Shown here piece by piece: positions 1 through 10,801 of a stretch of 10,801 bases of DNA (position 1 is its first letter; every line of letters starts with the position of its first letter). Where the stretch lies: the IMG/VR virus record IMGVR_UViG_2529292726_000024, positions 1 through 10,801 of that record, one strand, 5' to 3'. The translations under genes and the position numbers were made by a program. Origin of the DNA: a virus. Taxonomy: Duplodnaviria; Heunggongvirae; Uroviricota; Caudoviricetes. The notes under the pieces are model-generated. The model saw only the letters and a program-made list of their open reading frames with translations, ran no database searches and was not told where the DNA came from.

Positions 1-223
1 GTAGCATCTCCAGCAGAGTTGTTGGTGTCAGAGCCGGCCTCTCTTTCAACAGAGGAACAAGCATGCTGTCCCACACAGCTTCCAGAGGATCTTTGCGTGT
101 GCGCCAGTGCCGAACACTGTTTTTTGCCCACTCTCCTTTTTCGATCCGACGACCAGAACGGACTGAGATACCAGCCTTCATGGCCGAGATATGCTGAGTT
201 ATACCTTTCTTACGCTGAGTCAT
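1..223 (-). CDS. hypothetical protein, N-terminal fragment (ORF continues beyond window start)
   Basis: Minus-strand ATG at 223-221 opens a frame (MTQRKKGITQHISAMKAGISVRSGRRIEKGEW...) that stays open to base 1; in-frame TAA upstream at 295-293 bounds the start. Absent from the ORF track because it has no stop in the window. Basic N-terminus, no clear Shine-Dalgarno. Function not recognised. Confidence 0.3.
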   Translation of the reverse strand, partial: MTQRKKGITQHISAMKAGISVRSGRRIEKGEWAKNSVRHWRTRKDPLEAVWDSMLVPLLKERPALTPTTLLEML

Positions 224-364
224 ATAGTAACTGACCTGAGAAGTATTGAGCGTCACGCCATTTCCTGTTGGATCATGTAAATGACACTCAGGTTACAAAA
301 CCGGCCAGAATAATCGGCGCCAGGCGGACTGAGTTATTGTCGTCTCATACTCCACGCTTATTTT

Positions 365-1705
365 TTAGGTAACGTCTAAGATTCGCTCAATGAAGCGCAT
401 TTGTTCGAGGTTTTGTTTAACGCGAATGCTGATCCCTCCCTGCTGGTTACGTGAACCAGCAAAGTAGAGACGAGCCTCTCCTTTCGCTTCTTCTTCTTCG
501 GTTTTGTTGATCGTTATTACCAGGTCAGCAATACGTACTTTTTCGATGTTGTCGGCAGCGTGCATCATTGTGGCAACTTCTGACGCGCCACCTTCACGGT
601 TTGTCTGCGATGCCGTGATCCCAGCAACGTTATGCTTGTCATAAAGAGCACGTAAATCGGTGTAGATACTACGAATGTTGGCGCGATCATCACGAAGGTC
701 ATAACTGGCACGCATCAAATCTGCGTAGTCGACAACAACCATGTCAGGCACCATGCCGTTGGCTTTCATGCTGTTAAGCACACGGTCCAGATCTGCCGGT
801 GACATACTTCCTGACGGACGCTCAACAACCCACAAACTACCAATACCCTTCGTAGCTCCCAACTCTGCCAACTTGCGATGAACTTCATCGCGCCGTTCCA
901 CCAACTTGGACATTTCCGTCTCCGACAATCTTGCATCAAAACGGTCGGATAAAATGGTGGTGTGAACCTCCAGCGAGAGATACAGAACATTGTAGCCAGC
1001 AAGTGTTGCGTTTATGGAAAACTCACCCATTGCGGTCGATTTACCGGATTTAGCGAACCCCATGAAGAGCACCATTTCGCGCTTTGCCCAGCCTTTTTGG
1101 TACAGCACCCTATCGAGAAGAGGGAGTCCAGTTGTAATACTGTTTGGTACATACTCCTCTGAAGCCTCATATTCACGCGCTTTCAATCGCTCACTTGCGG
1201 AGGTGTAGTAGTCATAGATTCCGGTCGCTTCGTTCGATCCAATCTGCTGAACCTTGGCCATGATTGCCATCGCCCCCTGAAAGTCGCCTTTCTCTTTCAG
1301 TTCAGCAGCCTTAATCAGAGCATCATCAAACGCTACACTTTTTGCGAAGGTTGATACCTGGTCAACCATGTACGAGGTATCGGACAATTTTTCTGCAAGA
1401 ATGCGCTTAAACGCAGCAACAACATCGGCGAATAGTTCCTCACGGATAGTCTTATCGCGTTTCGCACGCTTAAGCATATCCAGAATTGCAGATGAAGAGG
1501 GCGCGCTCTTGTACATACGGTAATAGCCCGAAACCATATTAACCAATATGGCATTGGCCGCATTGGCAAATTGGCTAGGCACAACCAGATCTCCCGCACG
1601 AGTAAGAAACTCGTGATCACGACAAAAATATGCCGTCAGTCTGTTCTGGAAATCTTCATCAAACTCTTCGGACAGCCCGCGTCCTGTATGGCAAAGTTCG
1701 GTCAT
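365..1705 (-). CDS. DnaB-family (SF4, RecA-fold) replicative DNA helicase
   Basis: 446-aa ORF; Walker A GFAKSGKST; DnaB-like motifs VVVDYADLM (Walker B/H2) and ITASQTNRE (H3); SD AAGGAA 5 nt upstream of ATG at 1705-1703. Family assignment from motifs seen in the translation. Confidence 0.82.
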   Translation of the reverse strand: MTELCHTGRGLSEEFDEDFQNRLTAYFCRDHEFLTRAGDLVVPSQFANAANAILVNMVSGYYRMYKSAPSSSAILDMLKRAKRDKTIREELFADVVAAFKRILAEKLSDTSYMVDQVSTFAKSVAFDDALIKAAELKEKGDFQGAMAIMAKVQQIGSNEATGIYDYYTSASERLKAREYEASEEYVPNSITTGLPLLDRVLYQKGWAKREMVLFMGFAKSGKSTAMGEFSINATLAGYNVLYLSLEVHTTILSDRFDARLSETEMSKLVERRDEVHRKLAELGATKGIGSLWVVERPSGSMSPADLDRVLNSMKANGMVPDMVVVDYADLMRASYDLRDDRANIRSIYTDLRALYDKHNVAGITASQTNREGGASEVATMMHAADNIEKVRIADLVITINKTEEEEAKGEARLYFAGSRNQQGGISIRVKQNLEQMRFIERILDVT

Positions 1706-1748
1706 GTGCTTTCCTTTGTTTTTTAAACAAATTGTTTTCTAGTATTAG

Positions 1749-2489
1749 TTAATTAGATAGGGGATCAATAAACCGCCGTGCTTCTTCCAGTTCTTCTGGA
1801 AAGTGGGCGTAAATAAGGCGCTCTGGAACGATTTCCATTAGCCAGATAGCGGAGAAAATTGCGCGTATGCGCTTGCTGCGAGGGATGGTGCGCAAACGCT
1901 CCAGAATCCACTCAAAATAGCTTTCCTGAATCGGGTTGAACTGCATGTCTCCCATATGCTTAAAGCTAACCAGAGAGTCATCCAGACGGGTTGTTGCGCG
2001 TCTGGCTAATTTCTCTTCAAATATCTCAATCAGTTCTGGCTGCCATAAATGCTGTGGGCGCGGCAGCTTGTCCCACAGCCGTCGTGCAGCTGCGGAAAGA
2101 ACGGTGGAGATAAAGTAGTCGTATGAGCAGCAATAGCGATCCGCAAACTGGCGTGCTTTCCATAGCGACGTTTTATTGGCAGTCGACAACTCCTGATAAG
2201 GCAGACGTTTTAACCCGGTGGTGAACGGAGCTGTTTCAAAGTGTTCGCGACCGTGCGTCAGCATGATATTTGAGTACTGACGTTTGTATGCCTCCGTAAA
2301 AAGACAGGTGGCCATGAGAGGATGCATGTCGCGGTAATCAAACCACTTCGTCTCGAAGAGTTCAGCCTCGTCTTTACAGCGCGACAAACCAATGTTTTCA
2401 GCGACCCACTTGTCCATAACAGCGGTATTCCACTCTGTCATGAAGTCGTACTGGTCGTTGTCGATGGTATCGAAAAAGATTTGGCTCAT
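1749..2489 (-). CDS. hypothetical protein, immediately upstream of the helicase gene (possible replication initiator or helicase loader by position only)
   Basis: Long ORF, 43-nt gap to helicase start, same strand. First ATG at 2489-2487 has SD AGGTGA 5 nt upstream; the track start at 2498 is a GTG. Aromatic-rich, no motif recognised. Confidence 0.6.
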   Translation of the reverse strand: MSQIFFDTIDNDQYDFMTEWNTAVMDKWVAENIGLSRCKDEAELFETKWFDYRDMHPLMATCLFTEAYKRQYSNIMLTHGREHFETAPFTTGLKRLPYQELSTANKTSLWKARQFADRYCCSYDYFISTVLSAAARRLWDKLPRPQHLWQPELIEIFEEKLARRATTRLDDSLVSFKHMGDMQFNPIQESYFEWILERLRTIPRSKRIRAIFSAIWLMEIVPERLIYAHFPEELEEARRFIDPLSN

Positions 2490-2498
2490 GTGGCTCAC

Positions 2499-2591
2499 CT
2501 GGTGGGTAGTTACTTACTTATCACAATGAGCGGATGATAGCGACTGGTGGCAGTTTTTGGAAGTGAAAACGGAAGGGAGTTGTTCTGGTGG
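2499..2591. repeat. three direct CTGGTGG heptamer repeats in the divergent control region (candidate iterons/operators)
   Basis: CTGGTGG at 2499-2505, 2544-2550 and 2585-2591 (spacing 45 and 41 bp); the first overlaps the SD of the 246-aa gene on the opposite strand. None is preceded by G, so none is a canonical Chi octamer. Confidence 0.4.
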
Positions 2592-2714
2592 TGTCTTTTA
2601 AAAGACCTGCTTCCGTATATATTTAATAAGTTACTTATTATTTATATACAGAAACAGGCTCCTAATGGATACCAAGAACAACATAATTTGACTCCAACCC
2701 CAGATGCTATGTCA

Positions 2715-2748
2715 TTGACAGATTTATCAAGGGAGATCATGTTAGAAT
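2715..2748 (+). promoter_or_regulatory. candidate sigma70-type promoter for the 352-aa ORF
   Basis: TTGACA at 2715-2720 and extended -10-like TGtTAGAAT at 2740-2748; spacing 22 bp is longer than optimal, so this is weak evidence. Confidence 0.25.
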
Positions 2749-2778
2749 CAGTGTTTTAGCCTCGTGGATATTGTCACC

Positions 2779-3837
2779 ATGCGCATGAATAGACTTCCAG
2801 GATATGGCCTTCCCGAACTGGCTTTTTGGCCTCAGCCTAAATATGAACGGAATAAATGGTCGATGTTCTGTCTGAAACTCCGTAATGATGGAACCCTTGC
2901 TTGGTATCGGCGATATGTTGATCGTGGTATGCCAAACCACGCTTTTGATGACGACTACGATAACTATCCTGAAGCAAGAAAAGCGGCATTAGAGCTGAAT
3001 AAAAACGTGAGCTTTGACATTGAAAAACTTCCTCTATCTATGTTTCAAAAGAAGTCATTGCGTTTGAAAGTTGACAAAGCACTCAAAGCCAAATCACGTC
3101 TCATGGATGAAGAGCATATAATGCTCAACGAAGCAATTAAGGCACACGCCAACGATCCGCGAGTGACATTAAATGAGTTAATAATTAACCCAGATTACGA
3201 AACTTTGCGTCAACCCCTTTTTGACGTGCTAAGCGAGATGCCTTACTTACATTTTGTTTTTCTTCCCAAATTCCAAGTTTCACTTCAACTCGTTGCTCCT
3301 AACACTTGGGAATGTTCATATAACAACAAAGCTAAGACAGCGAAGATCTGCTACCAAGAACGCATAGCCAGAGGTTTTGGTTTATCAGGTGCTGCACATT
3401 GGGGAAAAACAAAAGCGACTATTCGCTCAATGCTTCTGCCGCGTGCTAACCGGTTACTGCAACTCGCCAGCGTAAAAAGAATGCTGGATGAAGCTCTCAG
3501 GAATGGGCAAAAGGTACTGGTTGTTGGCAACTTTGTTTTCTGGTTTGAGGACAAAAATCAGGTAGGTTGGAGTGTTAAAGTTGCTAGCGAAAGCGAAACC
3601 ACCTCAAGAGGCAATACGCTCTGGAAAGAAGGAACTATCATTTCAAAAAATCACGGTCGAATTGTCGTGCTGCCGTATACAAAAGAAAACGGTAAACATG
3701 TAAAAGGTTATACCAAGAATGCCCCTAACGACGGCAACGCAATTCCGAGACATAAGGATGAGTATGTCGAGTTGCCCTTTGAAATTTTGGATGGTGACTT
3801 GATGTTCAGTCTGTTCGGTGAGCTTAACTACGAATAG
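2779..3837 (+). CDS. hypothetical protein (352 aa from ATG 2779; 357 aa if the GTG at 2764 is used), orphan accessory gene of unknown function
   Basis: Uninterrupted ORF on the strand opposite to both flanking modules; terminator-like hairpin downstream; AT-richer than neighbours by hand count (3001-3060 about 32% GC versus about 45% for 1381-1440 in the helicase). No Walker, HTH, TM or nuclease motif recognised. Start codon uncertain; no strong SD. Confidence 0.6.
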   Translation: MRMNRLPGYGLPELAFWPQPKYERNKWSMFCLKLRNDGTLAWYRRYVDRGMPNHAFDDDYDNYPEARKAALELNKNVSFDIEKLPLSMFQKKSLRLKVDKALKAKSRLMDEEHIMLNEAIKAHANDPRVTLNELIINPDYETLRQPLFDVLSEMPYLHFVFLPKFQVSLQLVAPNTWECSYNNKAKTAKICYQERIARGFGLSGAAHWGKTKATIRSMLLPRANRLLQLASVKRMLDEALRNGQKVLVVGNFVFWFEDKNQVGWSVKVASESETTSRGNTLWKEGTIISKNHGRIVVLPYTKENGKHVKGYTKNAPNDGNAIPRHKDEYVELPFEILDGDLMFSLFGELNYE

Positions 3838-3854
3838 CTTTCATAGAACGAAAT

Positions 3855-3892
3855 ATTTCTAAGGCTGTCCAATGCAGACCAGCCTTAGAGAT
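3855..3892. terminator. bidirectional terminator-like hairpin between convergent genes
   Basis: Stem 3855-3867 pairs with 3880-3892 (core CTAAGGCTG / CAGCCTTAG, 9 perfect bp, extendable to 13 with one wobble), 12-nt loop; T-rich flank on both strands. Lies between the stop at 3835-3837 (+) and the stop at 3900-3898 (-). Confidence 0.45.
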
Positions 3893-3897
3893 TTATA

Positions 3898-4257
3898 TCA
3901 ACCTTTCTTCATTAACTCGCGTTTAATTTCATCGGTACGCATCGTGACATCGGCAGCGGTGATCGCCTCATTCAATTTCACGATGTCCTCGATTTCCTGC
4001 GGTGACTTCTCTGCCAGATGGAAAATGGCTGCTCGAATCACGTCAGAACGAGTGAACTTCTCGAAGCGAGGGATGAACTTCATCATCTCCAGCAGTTCGA
4101 AGTATTCGTCCTCCAGTGACATTGTGCGGCTTTTAATTTTCTCTTTGCCACGAGTCGGGCGTCCCTGTGGTCTGACTGGTTGGCGCAAAGGAGTTGTGTT
4201 CTTAGCCGGTGCATCAGGCTCTTTGCGCTTTGCTAGGTCACCCATTTTCATGGACAT
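3898..4257 (-). CDS. small partition-locus partner protein (ParG/ParB-like centromere-binding protein candidate)
   Basis: 119-aa ORF whose ATG (4257-4255) overlaps the ParA stop (4259-4257) as TAATG; basic, Pro-rich N-terminal tail and short C-terminal domain, typical of small partner proteins of ParF-type ATPases. Assignment is by context, not motif. Confidence 0.5.
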   Translation of the reverse strand: MSMKMGDLAKRKEPDAPAKNTTPLRQPVRPQGRPTRGKEKIKSRTMSLEDEYFELLEMMKFIPRFEKFTRSDVIRAAIFHLAEKSPQEIEDIVKLNEAITAADVTMRTDEIKRELMKKG

Positions 4258-4925
4258 TATTCTTCTTCCTCCAGACTCAACAGATAATCTACAAATTCTT
4301 CAAACTCGGCTTCCGCCTTTTTGTCGCGCTCGCTACCGGTCATTTCAAAGATAGAACGACCAGACTCTTCCGCATCATCATAGACGTTGCGGTTATATAG
4401 ATTGACTGGCGCAGACTCGATTCCAAACGTCTCAACAATCTCTTTAGCCGCCAGAATGCGAGACACTTGTGATGGCAAAGCCGGGCACTGGTTCATGACC
4501 GCGCGGACCTTCACTTTATCGTTTACATTGCGAACATTGTCGATAATAGGATCGATGTCACGTAAAGATTTCAAATCACGACGCTTAGGACGCAGCGGGA
4601 TAATGATAACGTCAGCCATCAGCATCGCTTGTCGCTGAATTTCGGAGTCGAAGCCACCAGCATCTACCACTACAAACTCAGCTCTACCCTGAAGCGATTT
4701 TAGGTGCTTAATGATGTCATCCTGAACGTATGCAAAAGGAATCAGCTCAAGGTCTTCGTTCTGTCGACGGTCTTCACACCAGCTCGTTGTCGTGCGCTGA
4801 ATATCTATATCGGTAATATAAACCTTCTTCTTCTTTTTGACTTTCAGGCAAACGGCAATTTGCTGGGCAACGGTGGATTTGCCAGGCCCGCCCTTTGTGC
4901 CGCCAACCACAAAGATCTTGGTCAT
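4257..4925 (-). CDS. ParA/ParF-family partition ATPase (deviant Walker A)
   Basis: 222 aa; deviant Walker A GGTKGGPGKST near the N-terminus; acidic C-terminus; small size typical of type Ib ParA. Confidence 0.8.
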   Translation of the reverse strand: MTKIFVVGGTKGGPGKSTVAQQIAVCLKVKKKKKVYITDIDIQRTTTSWCEDRRQNEDLELIPFAYVQDDIIKHLKSLQGRAEFVVVDAGGFDSEIQRQAMLMADVIIIPLRPKRRDLKSLRDIDPIIDNVRNVNDKVKVRAVMNQCPALPSQVSRILAAKEIVETFGIESAPVNLYNRNVYDDAEESGRSIFEMTGSERDKKAEAEFEEFVDYLLSLEEEE

Positions 4926-4960
4926 TGGAGAGTTCCCTTTGCGTATATAATTATCGTCTG

Positions 4961-4973
4961 AAACAACTTGTTT
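4961..4973. promoter_or_regulatory. palindrome upstream of parA-like gene (candidate operator/centromere element)
   Basis: AAACAA-c-TTGTTT at 4961-4973, about 36 bp upstream of the parA ATG. Additional inverted repeat GTACGG-N7-CCGTAC at 5105-5123 in the same intergenic region. Confidence 0.25.
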
Positions 4974-5128
4974 TCTTATATGTGATATAGCCTAAATGCC
5001 TACGGCTGCGGTGTAAAGGTTAAATGGTAGGTTGTGATTAACAATTGGCAAACATAGCTTGTATTTGTCTGTTGAAAAAAGTAACAATGACCTCTATATT
5101 ACAAGTACGGTGATATGCCGTACACAAT

Positions 5129-5188
5129 TTGATAATGCACACGTAATGGGCTATAGCCTTTTAAAGTAATTTTTGAGTCGAAAACTCA
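5129..5188 (+). promoter_or_regulatory. candidate promoter and operator of the toxin-antitoxin operon
   Basis: TTGATA (5129-5134), 17-bp spacer, TATAGC (5152-5157); downstream inverted repeat TGAGT-cgaaa-ACTCA at 5174-5188, positioned like an autoregulatory operator. Confidence 0.3.
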
Positions 5189-5243
5189 GTTTGAACAGAG
5201 GAGATTGATGGCCTTCCTACATCACGGCCATCAGGAGGAATAC

Positions 5244-5513
5244 ATGTCAGCACTAAAAAAGCAGCGCATCGATTTGAGATTAACCGATGACGATAAAAGC
5301 ATCATCGAGGAAGCTGCCGCAATGTCTAACCAGAGCATTACTCAGTTTATGGTTAGCAGTGCATCTGAACGTGCCGTGAAAGTTATAGAGCAACACCGTA
5401 GACTAGTTCTGAATGAAGAATCCTGGAATCTGGTTATGGACGCTATAAGCAATCCTCCGGCACCGAACGACAAGCTGAAACGAGCTGCTGATCGTCTGAA
5501 AAGCATGGAGTAG
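5244..5513 (+). CDS. type II antitoxin, DUF1778 (RHH) family, AtaR/TacA/KacA-like
   Basis: MSALKKQRIDLRLTDDDKS... matches the conserved N-terminus of DUF1778 antitoxins as I remember them. SD AGGAGG 5 nt upstream of ATG 5244; an alternative in-frame ATG at 5208 also has an SD. Stop is 7 nt before the toxin start. Confidence 0.8.
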   Translation: MSALKKQRIDLRLTDDDKSIIEEAAAMSNQSITQFMVSSASERAVKVIEQHRRLVLNEESWNLVMDAISNPPAPNDKLKRAADRLKSME

Positions 5514-5520
5514 TTTACTC

Positions 5521-6042
5521 GTGGATAATATAAAGATAGAAATTTTCTCTGGAGAGAAAGATTATGATTTGAATGGTTTTGATTGCGGTGAAGAATCACT
5601 AAATGCCTTTTTAACCAACCACTTAAAAAGGCAGCATGAGGGAAAAATTCTTCGCGCTTATGTGCTTTGCACGAAAGAAGGCAGACCAAAAGTGTTAGGG
5701 TATTACACTTTGTCAGGTAGCTGCTTTGAAAAGGAGTCCTTACCTTCAAGAAGCCAGCAAAAGAAGGTACCTTATCGGAATGTTCCAAGTGTTACTTTGG
5801 GTAGGCTGGCTTTGGACAAGTCCCTTCAAGGTCAAGGATTTGGCTCAATGCTTGTAACACATGCAATGCGCGTTGTGTACAATGCATCTCTTGCTGTAGG
5901 CATTCATGGACTTTTCGTTGAGGCGTTAAATGACAAAGCCAAGGCGTTTTATAAAAGTTTAGACTTTATCCAGCTGGTTGGTAACAACGAGCGTTCTTTG
6001 TTCTATCCTACAAAATCTATCGAAAAATTGTTCGAAGAATAA
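5521..6042 (+). CDS. GNAT-family N-acetyltransferase toxin (AtaT/TacT/ItaT-like, aminoacyl-tRNA acetylating)
   Basis: 173 aa, GTG start; acetyl-CoA-binding motif LQGQGFGSML; conserved FDCGEE and VGIHGLFVEALN segments remembered from AtaT-family toxins; directly downstream of the DUF1778 antitoxin. Confidence 0.8.
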   Translation: MDNIKIEIFSGEKDYDLNGFDCGEESLNAFLTNHLKRQHEGKILRAYVLCTKEGRPKVLGYYTLSGSCFEKESLPSRSQQKKVPYRNVPSVTLGRLALDKSLQGQGFGSMLVTHAMRVVYNASLAVGIHGLFVEALNDKAKAFYKSLDFIQLVGNNERSLFYPTKSIEKLFEE

Positions 6043-6047
6043 TGTAC

Positions 6048-6065
6048 TCCCCTCAAGTGAGGGGA
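6048..6065 (-). terminator. terminator-like hairpin between the converging TA operon and the minus-strand membrane cassette
   Basis: TCCCCTCA (6048-6055) pairs with TGAGGGGA (6058-6065); on the minus strand it follows the stop at 6076-6074 and precedes a U-rich stretch; the plus-strand flank is not U-rich. Confidence 0.35.
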
Positions 6066-6073
6066 ACTTCGCA

Positions 6074-6289
6074 TCACCAACCGCAAACTCTCTCTCCCAT
6101 CGTATTGTGAAAAAGGATTTGGCGTTCGGTTTCTTCGGTCATCACATCATTATTGCTGATATAGATAGGCCCAGCTCCATCGCAGAACAATACGCTGGCG
6201 GTTTGTGGTTTAATGACGCACCCACTTATCATACAACTCACGATGAACGGCAGAAGCATCTTTCTGACGTATTTTATTGCTCGTCTCAT
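6074..6289 (-). CDS. candidate o-spanin-like outer-membrane lipoprotein, overlapping the 3-prime end of the upstream gene in the +1 frame
   Basis: Lipoprotein signal MRRAIKYVRKMLLPFIVSCMISGC with lipobox ISGC (alternative start at ATG 6259). Overlaps the 6210-6461 gene by 80 nt in another frame, the classic overlapped Rz/Rz1 arrangement. Mature part is not proline-rich, so the assignment is tentative. Confidence 0.4.
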   Translation of the reverse strand: MRRAIKYVRKMLLPFIVSCMISGCVIKPQTASVLFCDGAGPIYISNNDVMTEETERQILFHNTMGERVCGW

Positions 6290-6461
6290 TCACCACTTCC
6301 ACTGTGCTTTGAAGTCGTTTTCTGTCTTCCTGTTTTGCCTTCTCTTCCATTGCTCGTCGCGCCGCATTCCCGCCCATCGTGTAAGCGCCGACAAGAACGA
6401 AAAGAACGGCAGCCAGCGTAATCAAAGCAACTTTTAGCTTTGTCATCAGGCTGCCTAGCAT
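6210..6461 (-). CDS. candidate i-spanin-like protein (N-terminal TM helix, charged periplasmic helix)
   Basis: ATG at 6461-6459 with SD AAGGGA upstream; MLGSLMTKLKVALITLAAVLFVLVGAYT is a single N-terminal TM, followed by a charged helical region (AARRAMEEKAKQEDRKRLQ...). Short (83 aa) for an Rz-like protein. Confidence 0.42.
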   Translation of the reverse strand: MLGSLMTKLKVALITLAAVLFVLVGAYTMGGNAARRAMEEKAKQEDRKRLQSTVEVVNETSNKIRQKDASAVHRELYDKWVRH

Positions 6462-6462
6462 A

Positions 6463-7155
6463 TTAGACCATCCCTTTCTGGTGTTTTCTTCCCTGCGACC
6501 AGGCAATGAATCCTGCCACAACAATAGTGGCAATACCGAAGATGATGCGTACTGTATCCCCGCTAGAGATATGACCTTGTGCTTTATCCATAGCAGCGGA
6601 AACCTGCGGCATAACATCGGCCAGCTGCGCCAGACCAATACCTGCTGTAACAGTTGCGCCTGCGGTTTCTTTAGTTACAGGAACAGCCTTCACGGTTTTC
6701 ACCGGCTTAACAACGCCAGCTCGACGCAGACCTTCCTCAATAACTTCTACCGCATACCAGGTGTTCAGCGTTTTTAGCGGGCCTCGGCCATTCTCGTGGC
6801 GAATGATTGCCTCAACCAAAGGTCGAAGGATGTCGTAATCATGCAGATCGATGATCATGTCTGCGGTTACACCAACGGCTTTAGACACCTCATTAATGTA
6901 GGCGTCAGTATTGTTTTCATTCGGCGGTGCCCAACGTTCAATAACTTCACGAATGGTATCGATACTTGAGCCGTCTTTTGCGCGACGTTTGTCGTGGTAG
7001 GTAATTAGAGTCACCGCCAGCGCACGAATCCCCCAAACAGGGTCTTTAAACGTGCAAAAGCGCGGTTCGTCTGGATTCGCAACCAGACCTTGCCACGGTG
7101 ATCCTTTATCAAGATTACCGGGGTTATTATTACGAATGCCTCTCGGAGTCTTCAT
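6463..7155 (-). CDS. tail-anchored membrane protein (C-terminal TM); endolysin-like only by its position in the cassette, unverified
   Basis: 230 aa from ATG 7155 (SD AGGAG 7 nt upstream; the track start at 7182 is a GTG). N-terminal soluble domain with RNNNPGNL, C-terminal TM IIFGIATIVVAGFIAW. No catalytic motif of a known muralytic family recognised. Confidence 0.4.
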   Translation of the reverse strand: MKTPRGIRNNNPGNLDKGSPWQGLVANPDEPRFCTFKDPVWGIRALAVTLITYHDKRRAKDGSSIDTIREVIERWAPPNENNTDAYINEVSKAVGVTADMIIDLHDYDILRPLVEAIIRHENGRGPLKTLNTWYAVEVIEEGLRRAGVVKPVKTVKAVPVTKETAGATVTAGIGLAQLADVMPQVSAAMDKAQGHISSGDTVRIIFGIATIVVAGFIAWSQGRKHQKGMV

Positions 7156-7168
7156 CCTTGATCTCCTG

Positions 7169-7492
7169 TTATTGCAGTCCACTTTTTACGCCATACGCGG
7201 CTAACCCCAAAAGCAGTGCGGTAATAATGAACGACGTTATTTTAGAAACAATGCCGCCAAAGAACCCACTTGAGATGGAATCTAACCGGTTAAGGAGTTT
7301 GTCCAGATTGGAGTGTTGAATACTATGTTGCGCCGGGGTCATATCACCAAAGTAGGTTTTCAGCTGATCATTGACCTCCTGGCCAATTTCTTCACGTAGC
7401 TCTTTACCTAATTTGCCAACAACCTCCCGAGCAACGATCGCGGCAATACGCTCAACTTGCTCTGTTGTAACGCCCGCCATCTCGTTCGACAT
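7169..7492 (-). CDS. small tail-anchored membrane protein (holin-like by position, unverified)
   Basis: ATG at 7492 has a strong SD GGAGG 5 nt upstream (alternative ATG at 7504 lacks one). About 85-aa charged N-terminal region then a single C-terminal TM ITSFIITALLLGLAAYGV. Stop is 13 nt before the next gene. Confidence 0.4.
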   Translation of the reverse strand: MSNEMAGVTTEQVERIAAIVAREVVGKLGKELREEIGQEVNDQLKTYFGDMTPAQHSIQHSNLDKLLNRLDSISSGFFGGIVSKITSFIITALLLGLAAYGVKSGLQ

Positions 7493-7573
7493 GTTTTCCT
7501 CCATGAAAAGTCAAATCGGGATGGCGGATTTATATCACATTTCACCCTTTTGTTGTAGGTGTGTACTTACCTA

Positions 7574-7807
7574 TCATTCAGCATTGCAACCGATTGATGA
7601 GAAAGCACCTACTCCAACCCATCGCCAGTTATAGATGCTACCCGCTTTGTATAAGGTATAGTCGTTCACTTTTTTAACAGCATATATGGGTATGACTGTC
7701 TCCTGTCCACCAATGATAGCTTCACCATAACATATAGGTGTCGGCAATTTCTGGCAGCCAGTAAGAGAGAGAACAACAGCTATTGTTAGAAATAATCTTT
7801 TCATCAT
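7574..7807 (-). CDS. small lipoprotein, 77 aa (candidate Cor-like superinfection-exclusion lipoprotein)
   Basis: Signal peptide MMKRLFLTIAVVLSLTGC with lipobox LTGC; starts 4 nt after the stop of the 202-aa gene; size and position after the tail-fibre genes recall Cor-type lipoproteins of lambdoid/N15-like phages, but sequence similarity is not verified. Confidence 0.55.
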   Translation of the reverse strand: MMKRLFLTIAVVLSLTGCQKLPTPICYGEAIIGGQETVIPIYAVKKVNDYTLYKAGSIYNWRWVGVGAFSSIGCNAE

Positions 7808-7814
7808 TTACTCA

Positions 7815-8423
7815 TCAGTTATACAGATTTCTATTTATTACCGGTACTCTGCCATTTACGCTAAAACTATGGCCGCCATTAAGTTGGTTTACGAATATCG
7901 AGCTAACAGTATTTCCATATGCCGCATATCCATAAACCATTGTCATGGCTCCGCCCGGTACTGGAACAGCGAACACATTCGCATATGTTGGGATTATCGC
8001 TGGAGGGTAATCAAAAACATGCCCTCCAGAGCTGTTCCACTCCGTATTATTAAGAAAGGTAAATGAAAGTGGGATATTTGCCGTATTATAGATTTCCTCC
8101 CCTTGTGCATTGAAAAAACTCATGCCCCAAGTTTCTTTTTTGGCTATACCTTTCGAAAATACGTATATCGTGGCACTAGAGTCGCTACCCTGACCTCCGA
8201 AACTGTAAATCACCTGGTTGTTACGCACTATTCTGTTGGCTATTAATGAAACAGCTTTCGAATAGGCAACAAAAATAATCGGTGAACGATCTGGAGATAT
8301 TTTGGTGTTAAACTCTGTTCCGCCGGACAAAGAAACAACCTGCTTTCTCTGAAAAACGATAGGAGACAAAGAAGGAGACATCCAGACCTTCCCGTCAGAT
8401 CGATATATCTTGCTTCCGTACAT
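7815..8423 (-). CDS. hypothetical protein, 202 aa, Gly/Ser/Asn/Tyr-rich, probably beta-rich
   Basis: ATG at 8423-8421 overlaps the stop of the upstream gene as TAATG (translational coupling). No TM segment or catalytic motif seen. Confidence 0.55.
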   Translation of the reverse strand: MYGSKIYRSDGKVWMSPSLSPIVFQRKQVVSLSGGTEFNTKISPDRSPIIFVAYSKAVSLIANRIVRNNQVIYSFGGQGSDSSATIYVFSKGIAKKETWGMSFFNAQGEEIYNTANIPLSFTFLNNTEWNSSGGHVFDYPPAIIPTYANVFAVPVPGGAMTMVYGYAAYGNTVSSIFVNQLNGGHSFSVNGRVPVINRNLYN

Positions 8424-8677
8424 TATTTTTGAAAAACCAATATGTTTAAATTACCACTAGCTCCAGACCACGAAATGGTATTTCCAGAAACCGTAAGACT
8501 TGTGTACTTTCCATTGGTTACGTCCATTATGTAATAGTCGATTCCCAATCCCGCCTCAACCTCATATGTTCTACTTCCTGAACCAGAGGGAGTAAAATAA
8601 TCGAGGTAATAAACAGGGGCCAACGCATTGACCATCTCCTGTCTTGATGGCGACCAAACCTGTGCACCATAGCTCAT
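8423..8677 (-). CDS. hypothetical protein, 84 aa
   Basis: ATG at 8677 with SD AAGGA 7 nt upstream; first gene after the tail-fibre stop; coupled to the 202-aa gene. No motif recognised. Confidence 0.5.
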   Translation of the reverse strand: MSYGAQVWSPSRQEMVNALAPVYYLDYFTPSGSGSRTYEVEAGLGIDYYIMDVTNGKYTSLTVSGNTISWSGASGNLNILVFQK

Positions 8678-8702
8678 AAATATATCCTTATACTTTTAAG
8701 CA

Positions 8703-8725
8703 GGGGCTGGTTTAGCTCCAGCCCC
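8703..8725. other. GC-rich hairpin between the tail-fibre gene and the downstream cassette
   Basis: GGGGCTGG (8703-8710) pairs with CCAGCCCC (8718-8725), 7-nt loop. U-rich flank only on the plus strand, so it is not a convincing terminator for the minus-strand operon; possibly an RNA-stability or processing element. Confidence 0.3.
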
Positions 8726-8737
8726 GATTGAAGTTGT

Positions 8738-10534
8738 TTATTCTTTAGGTGAATTTAACTTCGTTTCAAGCTCCTCAACCCTTTTGGTCAATTGCTGAAT
8801 ATGATGAATGAGTGGTACAACCAAACGCTCATACATCACTCCTTCAGCGACCATACCATTTGAGGAAATACCTTCTGGAGAATCATTATTTGTTGGTTCA
8901 CGCCAATGGACATATTGCGGGGCAATCTCACCAACCTCTTCAGCAATAAGGCCGTAATACCCCCAATCCTTTCGGTCACCTCGACAAATTGAACGATACC
9001 AAACAGGTCTTAATGACAAAAGTTCATCAGCATATCGATCTTGTAATGTTTCAATATCCTTTTTATAGCGCCTTGAAGACGTTGAACGCCAAACTGTATT
9101 GATACCTGGGTTTGGATCAATGTACATATTGGCACCGCTAGTAGTTGTGCCAATATCCCATATAGCAAACCCTCCACTACCGCCTGATTTGACAACCAGT
9201 GTTTCAGCAACAATATCCAGGTTGCCACTATAGCCTGTCAGTGATGATCTGCTTGCATAGGAACTTAGAAGGTTTGCTACCTCTGTTTTCGTGTAAGCAT
9301 TAAGGTTAGCCGCAGTCAAAGTTATATCGGCAGAGCCATCAAACGCCACACCAGCAATTTTCCTTGCTGTCTGCAATTTTGTGGCGGTTGCGGCATTACC
9401 AGTAGTGTTCTGATTACCAGTGGCATTCACACCAGGAATGGAGTCCCTTGATGTATATACCTGCGCCCACGCTGACCATGCCGCAACTGTGTAATCTCTT
9501 CGGGAGCGAATGAAAACCGGCGCATGTGCACCGCTCGTACCACTCCAGCCAATAAGCAACTCGCCCTCACCAGCAGCACTCGCACCTTTCATGTGCAATA
9601 CGTTGCCATACGTGGTCGGGTAGCTATTGTTGTACACCTCATACATTTGAATGCCAGCAGTGCCTTGAGTAGAGCCGCTTAACGCCGTAACTCGGCCACG
9701 AGATACCAATGTATTAATATTGATATCGCCTGAACCATCAAACTTAACACCATTGATGTTTCTCGCTGTTTGCAACTTCGTAGCTGTTGAAGCATTACCG
9801 TTCAAACTACCATTTACGCCACCAGTCACATTTAGTCCATTACCAATTGATACAGCACCGCTGGTATTATTAATTGTAATAGGTCGCAAACCGTTCCATG
9901 AACCTAATGTGTCTCCTGATGCTGTTAGCAGGAAATATGTGTTCGCCCCATCATTACGGATAAAGAACCCAAAGTTACCGTAAGCAATGCGGAAACCATT
10001 TGCATATTTTGAAACGATCTCACCAGAAGACGTTAACCCTCCAGATAATGTGCCACCTGAAAGCGGTAATGCTCCTACATCAGAAGCTGTTGGTTTGTTT
10101 CTAGTGTTATACGCTCTGCGCCATCCAGGTGAATAACTTGAGCCATTAGACACATAGATAAACTCCGCATTAGTGAGTGCACCAGAGACATTTGTCGTAG
10201 TGGCCGTTGTTATTCGAATGGTGTAATTGTTGGTATTATTGCTGAATACTTCTATCACAGCACCCGCCAGTGGAATAATGCCACAACCAGTTTCACTGTC
10301 TGGTATGGATGCACTATTCGCATACGCCCATGCACAACGAGCGATCCATGCTTTCGTACTGAATGCCCCGTTATTTTGCAACAAAGTAACTAACTGGGCT
10401 GTCGTTATTGCCCCTCCATTACTTCCTGTAGTTAACCAACCAGTAGGAGATGCCGGGCAACCTATATTTGCTGGCGACAAGGCAATATTTGCCGAGCCGT
10501 CAAACGACACCCCATTGATAGTACGCGCAGTCTG
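8738..10534 (-). pseudogene. tail fibre protein with C-terminal S74 intramolecular-chaperone domain, 5-prime truncated by IS2 insertion
   Basis: Three copies of the tail-fibre repeat LQTAR-INGV-FDGS; C-terminal domain with SSRRYKKDI (S74 auto-cleavage consensus) and ...VPLIHHIQQLTKRVEELETKL. The reading frame runs into the IS2 left end at 10535, so the first ~45 codons of the 643-aa track ORF derive from IS2. Confidence 0.8.
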
Positions 10535-10801
10535 TAGACTGCCCCCCTGAATCTCCAGACAACCAGTATCACTTAAATAAGTGATAGTCTTAATACTAGT
10601 TTTTAGACTAGTCATTGGAGAACAGATGATTGATGTCTTAGGGCCGGAGAAACGCAGACGGCGTACCACACAGGAAAAGATCGCAATTGTTCAGCAGAGC
10701 TTTGAACCGGGGATGACGGTCTCCCTCGTTGCCCGGCAACATGGTGTAGCAGCCAGCCAGTTATTTCTCTGGCGTAAGCAATACCAGGAAGGAAGTCTTA
10801 C
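10535..10801 (+). mobile_element. IS2 (IS3 family), left end, partial (runs off window)
   Basis: Sequence from TAGACTG at 10535 through the insC start matches the IS2 left end as I remember it (near-identical, one or two mismatches in the terminal repeat). Boundary good to about 3 bp. Confidence 0.85.
10626..10801 (+). CDS. insC: IS2 transposase OrfA (InsC), N-terminal part
   Basis: [58 protein letters not shown] is the recognised InsC N-terminus; SD GGAG upstream; ORF continues beyond the window. Confidence 0.85.

Follow-up and report, generated by a model that had tools for sequence, protein, structure and literature searches.

The right end of the window, as we call the whole 10,801-nt stretch of DNA analyzed here, holds one half of a side-fibre gene that appears to have been split when a single IS2 transposed into an SSU5-like phage-plasmid of E. 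coli 2875150. Based on sequence comparisons, we give this reading a probability of roughly 0.9. In the proposed course of events, one 1331-bp IS2 (IS3 family) would have inserted between codons 785 and 786 of 1383, antisense to the fibre gene, and duplicated its 5-bp target CAGAC. The 5' part would then end as an 845-aa ORF, with fibre residues 1-787 followed by 58 junk residues from the IS2 right end; it would retain the tail-attachment end and the Ala/Ser-rich shaft, but would have lost the receptor-binding modules of the distal part along with the S74 chaperone at the C-terminus. The 3' remnant would be left with 598 codons and no native start, and would look like an ORF of 625-643 aa, as its frame continues without a stop through 45 codons of IS2 sequence. 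The assembly would have broken inside IS2 owing to the several copies of this element in the strain. Finally, no functional side fibres would be made, and any virions would bear the J-like central fibre only, with slower adsorption or fewer hosts as the outcome.

Table 1. Features of the window around the insertion (positions are those of the window)
Feature	Position	Strand	Comparison
First gene downstream of the fibre gene, 84 aa, phrog_557	8423..8677	-	Gene order same as in p4_0.2
3' remnant of the side tail-fibre gene, codons 786-1383 and stop	8738..10534	-	100% identical to CP025888.1, 99.8% to p4_0.2
5-bp target-site duplication GTCTG (+ strand; CAGAC on the fibre coding strand)	10530..10534	.	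Repeated next to the IS2 right end on APXK01000140.1
Antisense-IS2 codons (45) extending the fibre frame to a GTG	10535..10669	-	Not native fibre sequence
IS2 left end (IRL side), cut by the contig end	10535..10801	+	267/267 identity to full 1331-bp IS2 copies

IS2 ends, target duplication and partner contig

The entire window corresponds to contig APXK01000047.1 (10,801 bp) of the E. coli 2875150 draft assembly GCA_000356245.1, the right end of which lies 267 nt into IS2. The initial annotation had recognized the IS2 left end at 10535 and its flank as GTCTG, and had made its reading depend on this assignment surviving alignment, which it did: the terminal part of the window is identical throughout to the left end of two full-length copies (L005 and L006). 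It opens with TAGACTGCCCCCCTGAATCTCC, directly preceded by the GTCTG flank; the terminal inverted repeat begins TAGACTGCCCCCC and the sequence from 10535 reads TAGACTGCCCCCCTGAATCTCCAGACAACC... The reference copies terminate ...GGGGCAAATCCA, and the right end on the partner contig described below has 0 mismatches over 322 nt. One of these reference copies (L006) is also flanked by a 5-bp target duplication (ATGTT). The insC/orfA start is the ATG at 10626, 92 nt from the element end; the window includes only the first 58 codons of orfA, and their translation matches the OrfA N-terminus, with a match to the HTH_Tnp_1 domain. Elsewhere, IS2 copies with identical ends are 1331 bp long and annotated with a programmed frameshift (orfA-orfB transposase, programmed -1), and the element was found in 4599 of 5426 complete E. 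coli genomes, many E. coli genomes having copies that match 10535-10801 at 100% identity.

The partner contig was sought by predicting a product from the fibre 5' part, CAGAC and the IS2 right end, and then looking up its internal Met starts exactly. The predicted product has 787 fibre residues followed by GFAPIFPDICYH...LVWA, for a total of 845 aa. Exact look-up of the full 845-aa chimera returned no protein record; the 391-aa version from the internal Met455 is exactly ENB14488.1, from the same strain, encoded on APXK01000140.1. This contig (42,272 bp, same assembly) carries fibre codons 1-787 and then the IS2 right end, with the 845-aa chimeric ORF present in its DNA (L011 8639-11176). It terminates in ...GAAGTTGCAGAC/TGGATTTGCCCC (slashes mark the junctions) and then 322 nt of IS2, and the minus strand of the window reads ...GGGGGGCAGTCTA/CAGACTGCGCGT at its own junction. 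CAGAC is found at both IS2 junctions as a 5-bp direct duplication (partner copy at L011 10994-10998). The uninterrupted sequence at the breakpoint is gcagtctg/caacttcgtagc, with the target site spanning gcagtctgcaacttcg. On the coding strand the break is at K-L/Q-T-A-R, between Leu785 and Gln786, in the third of five LQTAR motifs, just as the initial annotation had located it within one of these repeats; the Leu at the junction is re-created by chance from the terminal CTA codon of IS2. When the two contigs are joined minus IS2 and one CAGAC, the resulting 13,797 nt are colinear with plasmid CP025888.1 at 99.993% identity with 0 gaps.

The matching CAGAC duplication, together with this gap-free reconstitution, is the signature of a simple IS2 transposition, and by this comparison the event is of that kind. 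Hence, of the two fates proposed earlier for the native 5' part, namely a position beyond IS2 or deletion, the first holds and the second is excluded; the IS2 right end, the 5-bp duplication and the fibre 5' part that were to be looked for were all located on APXK01000140.1. We infer from the matching target duplication that both halves flank one continuous IS2, the internal 742 nt of which lie on neither contig. Given that just 267 + 322 nt of IS2 ends were assembled with their flanks and that IS2 occurs at least once more in the strain, the fibre halves might instead have been separated after the insertion by IS2-IS2 recombination, i.e., by a cointegrate that joined the phage-plasmid to the chromosome or to a different plasmid, by inversion or by formation of a composite IS2-X-IS2. 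We consider this to have a slim chance: the perfect duplication and gap-free reconstitution are what a simple insertion leaves, the rearrangement would be an extra, unsupported event, and reports of SSU5-type phage-plasmids describe them solely as extrachromosomal (PMC9600943).

A mis-assembly, with the IS2-fibre junction as a chimeric contig end and the fibre gene intact in the strain, might be suspected as the contig ends in a multi-copy repeat, a situation error-prone for short-read assemblers. However, it would have to produce reciprocal junctions at the same nucleotide on two independent contigs together with a 5-bp duplication typical of IS2; further, no contig with an uninterrupted junction surfaced, and both chimeras are among the annotated proteins of the strain. 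We therefore regard it as extremely unlikely. It may be that just a fraction of the cells in the sequenced culture carry the insertion.

Searches with the N-terminal 785 aa recovered only full-length relatives and no 5' fragment among the best 120 of 6538 matches. A search with a synthetic junction peptide returned no 5' chimera, and found instead a different IS2 junction of the same strain (product P0198). The exact IS2-fibre junction was absent from 5426 complete E. coli genomes, PLSDB, species-representative genomes, IMG/VR and metagenomes; among the collections searched, the insertion is, by sequence, private to strain 2875150.

The P0198 junction is a further IS2 right-end junction, on contig APXK01000051.1 (L010, 1035 bp), which points to several IS2 copies in strain 2875150 and explains the contig breaks, including the end of the window within IS2. 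It adjoins an IS1 fragment. P0198 itself is a 90-aa chimera named 'putative receptor-like kinase domain protein', and it ends in the IS2 read-through peptide (58-59 residues) that also closes the 5' fibre chimera. At the other end, window positions 1-256 (minus strand) hold codons 1-85 of an ORF for an IS21-family transposase of 499 aa (NF033546, 227 bits), which is seen in full in locus L013 (33-1532, minus strand). This IS21-family insertion is also present in CP025888.1, and matches of Cyrano and SSU5 to the window begin only at position 350. With one end in an IS21-family element and the other in IS2, both contig ends are repeat-induced assembly breaks. The 120-nt fibre repeats were considered as a cause of the break and rejected, being only ~70% identical at the DNA level.

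The target beside the IS2 left end mirrors the IS end itself (gCAGTCTg/tAGACTGc, window 10523-10546), and because of this similarity the BLAST alignment continued past the junction for 17 nt of flank. In other E. coli strains, an unrelated IS2 site, within the gene for an anaerobic sulfatase maturase, reads ...gcagcgtctgg/TAGACTG (L012 1205-1225). Such IS-end-like targets may reflect a target preference of IS2, on a sample of two sites, the second of which was chosen by similarity.

The interrupted fibre gene and its annotated halves

The 1797 nt of the 3' remnant match ~110-kb non-mobilizable E. coli plasmids with up to 100% identity. In the RefSeq record of p4_0.2, the fragment is the 3' end of a 4152-nt CDS for a 1383-aa 'tail fiber domain-containing protein', directly downstream of the gene for a J-like 'phage tail tip fiber protein'. 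The complete fibre has an N-terminal region, a long Ala/Ser-rich shaft, five LQTAR modules, a Gp34_trimer-like domain (residues 906-1006) and a C-terminal Peptidase_S74 intramolecular chaperone domain (1271-1327). The modules share the motif ATKLQTAR-x-I-x-GV-x-FDGS, with LQTAR at aa 705, 745, 785, 1039 and 1172. The distal domains are recovered in the 625-aa product of the window at scores comparable to those in a full-length relative: 107.6 versus 107.7 bits for PF21446, and 30.5 versus 27.2 bits for Peptidase_S74 (PF13884), for which the Pfam gathering cut-off is 22. The S74 motif region can be seen in the sequence (..TSSRRYKKDIETL..), with a putative role in autocatalytic release and trimer formation. 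Further, phrog_3299 matches the fibre end to end, and the protein resembles, by sequence similarity, solved fragments of Mu protein S and T4 gp34.

Among the matches listed (P0001-P0120), fibres with a 90-100% identical N-terminal 785 aa display differing C-terminal modules and span 1049-1362 aa, with Gp34_trimer/S74, Phage_fiber_2 and Collar/Phage_fiber modules swapped among them. From the sequences, the swap seems to be located around the LQTAR repeat modules, possible linkers for recombination.

Clustered at 90%, the 625-aa product groups with proteins of 689-695 aa on more than 200 contigs, annotated as 'chaperone of endosialidase', and these could be taken to mean that the 3' fragment is a free-standing functional gene for a separate distal fibre subunit of ~600-700 aa. 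This was also the refuting case named in the initial annotation, that the fragment is complete in its relatives. However, the contigs in question (L007-L009 3931-8088; P0122, P0123, P0126) carry a single 1385-aa ORF that starts at an ATG directly behind the J gene and shares the stop of the shorter calls, and the N-termini of the shorter calls are internal fibre residues with M in place of the native residue, such as an internal Leu, the starts being TTG or other codons. The 4152-nt RefSeq CDS and the full-length phrog_3299 match speak for one long gene, and the frame upstream of the fragment in the window is antisense IS2 with no RBS or promoter match. We find a separate subunit hardly credible. 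By this comparison, the 689-695 aa calls are internal-start annotation artefacts of the 1383-1385 aa ORF. Gene finders evidently have difficulty with the Ala/Ser-rich region, calling spurious reverse ORFs there too. Annotations of this fibre at 689-695 aa, of which there are hundreds in other genomes, represent truncated gene calls, a systematic error.

In the window, the mechanical ORF on the minus strand (8738..10669) has 643 aa. Its codons 1-45 (10669-10535) are antisense IS2, and the other 598 are identical to residues 786-1383 of the CP025888.1 fibre. This bears out the earlier proposals that the frame stays open through about 45 codons of IS2, that the apparent N-terminus is derived from the element and that the ORF is a chimera, the fragment being the C-terminal 43% of the 1383-1385 aa ORF. 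The ATG claimed at 10669 has to be corrected: the start codon at 10669-10667 is GTG, and the first in-frame ATG, at 10615, gives the 625-aa product used by NCBI (ENB17514.1 / WP_001404397.1). Exact look-up of the 643-aa ORF with either V or M as its first residue found nothing, only the 625-aa ATG version being on record. The window ORF is devoid of residues 1-785, which comprise the native N-terminal attachment region and the start codon. Direct reading revealed no Shine-Dalgarno-like sequence ahead of the 10615 ATG, and no sigma-70-like site was detected on the minus strand in 10535-10801. Expression of the remnant driven by IS2 was considered and rejected, as no sigma-70-like match occurs on the minus strand within the IS2 end; the outward -35 element of IS2 sits at its right end (IRR) and not at its left end. 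For curation, this means that one IS2-disrupted gene has given rise to two separate records, a 391-aa 'phage tail fiber repeat family protein' (ENB14488.1) for its 5' half and a 625-aa 'chaperone of endosialidase family protein' for its 3' half, both with IS2-derived junk residues.

The SSU5-like element and the neighboring genes

The element is SSU5-like: it matches Escherichia phage Cyrano at 97.9% identity and Salmonella phage SSU5 at 82%. The Cyrano match covers 69% of window positions 1-8737, and plasmid CP025888.1 (111,957 bp) matches the window at 100% identity. The DnaB-like helicase, ParA, TacA/GNAT pair, endolysin, spanin and Cor, along with the identity to Cyrano and SSU5, assign it to the SSU5-type phage-plasmids; synteny and identity agree in this, the 2875150 copy being known from draft contigs and the ~110-kb replicon from its relatives.

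On APXK01000140.1, an intact gene for a 1574-aa J-like tail-tip (central) fibre lies immediately upstream of the side-fibre gene, in the company of tail genes for a tape measure and for Phage_min_tail, Phage_tail_L and JAB/NlpC-P60 homologues (M-, L- and K-like). On the other side of the insertion, the 84-aa gene (Table 1) is followed by genes for a 202-aa membrane protein, Cor, the endolysin and the spanin. Genes downstream of the fibre could feel polarity from the IS2 insertion. The 60-nt gap between the fibre stop and the next gene holds a perfect 8-bp GC-rich hairpin (window 8703-8725; GGGGCTGG, 7-nt loop, CCAGCCCC), with no clear T-run on either strand. Judged by its sequence and position, this hairpin may be a terminator or RNA-processing site that ends the tail operon, in which case it would limit the polarity of IS2 on cor and the lysis genes.

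Two other loci of the window concern accessory functions. A variable locus (2660-3900) has an ORF for 357 aa (2764-3837, plus strand) with no Pfam or NCBIfam match, also found in CP025888.1; p4_0.2 instead has a gene for a LEM-3-like GIY-YIG nuclease at this locus. Between ParA and the lysis genes (5244-6042, plus strand) is a TacA (DUF1778) antitoxin with a GNAT acetyltransferase toxin (KacT in Cyrano), which, going by its sequence relatives, is probably a plasmid-maintenance module of the phage-plasmid.

Adsorption and comparison with known systems

The predicted loss of function rests on the missing S74 chaperone and distal domains of the 5' product and on the fact that lambda and T5 are known to do without their side fibres. 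In characterized S74-class fibres (endosialidase, T5 pb1), the chaperone is needed for trimer folding. The 3' remnant is without a native start, Shine-Dalgarno-like sequence or sigma-70-like match, so it is very unlikely that the IS2-split element makes functional side fibres. Such a loss probably slows or narrows adsorption and need not render the particles non-infectious: given the intact 1574-aa J-like gene, the effect would, by analogy with lambda PaPa or T5, be a slowing or narrowing rather than abolition. The side fibres of lambda and T5 speed adsorption 10-30 fold and are dispensable for plaque formation (PMC12617516). On natural hosts bearing O-antigen, a side fibre can be required, as described for Gifsy-1 (PMC12312913), and by this analogy the phenotype could be more severe on O-antigen hosts than that of lambda PaPa. 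The element had earlier been called probably defective for adsorption unless another fibre gene exists. The J-like gene upstream is such a gene; 'defective' is too strong a term, and 'side-fibre-less' is the description supported.

The insertion is a real but ordinary event of an already-known kind, and IS insertions have been discussed in the literature as a route to the inactivation of phage-plasmids (PMC10879196). Its main value lies in annotation clean-up and it opens no new question; it is a further case of a temperate element decaying through an IS and, provided that the element is otherwise intact, predicts an SSU5-like particle without side fibres. A larger meaning has a very thin likelihood, whether the insertion is seen as the first step from phage-plasmid to pure plasmid, or a distal fragment expressed by read-through is seen as a free receptor-binding or exclusion protein, or, in a weaker variant, IS2 is taken to select targets that mimic its own end (gCAGTCTg versus tAGACTGc).

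Four known systems offer comparisons. First, as in other gene disruptions by IS2 (IS3 family), we see an identical left end, a 5-bp target duplication, an OrfA (InsC) start 92 nt in and what would be two non-functional parts of one gene; there is no mechanistic difference from the IS2 disruptions known in E. coli, phages and plasmids, only this particular insertion site being absent from the collections searched. Second, the element shares with the SSU5 / pHCM2-type phage-plasmids (Cyrano, p4_0.2, p503046_111) the order helicase, ParA, TacAT-like pair, lysis genes, cor, fibre and J, with 97-100% identity to E. coli members and 82% to SSU5; it differs in the IS2 in the fibre gene and an IS21-family element adjoining the helicase gene. 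Third, the fibre resembles those with an S74 chaperone (endosialidase, T5 pb1) and with modules like those of Mu S and T4 gp34, PF13884 and PF21446 both scoring above their cut-offs in the distal part, but its N-terminal 785 residues are common to variants with quite different C-terminal modules. Fourth, the stf frameshift of lambda PaPa (versus Ur-lambda) and the mutants of the T5 L-shaped fibre (pb1) provide parallels to the predicted particle, being siphoviruses with a J-type central fibre and mutated accessory side fibres; in the present phage-plasmid the gene is interrupted by an IS, not frameshifted, the dispensability of its side fibre would hold by analogy only, and natural hosts with O-antigen may need it.
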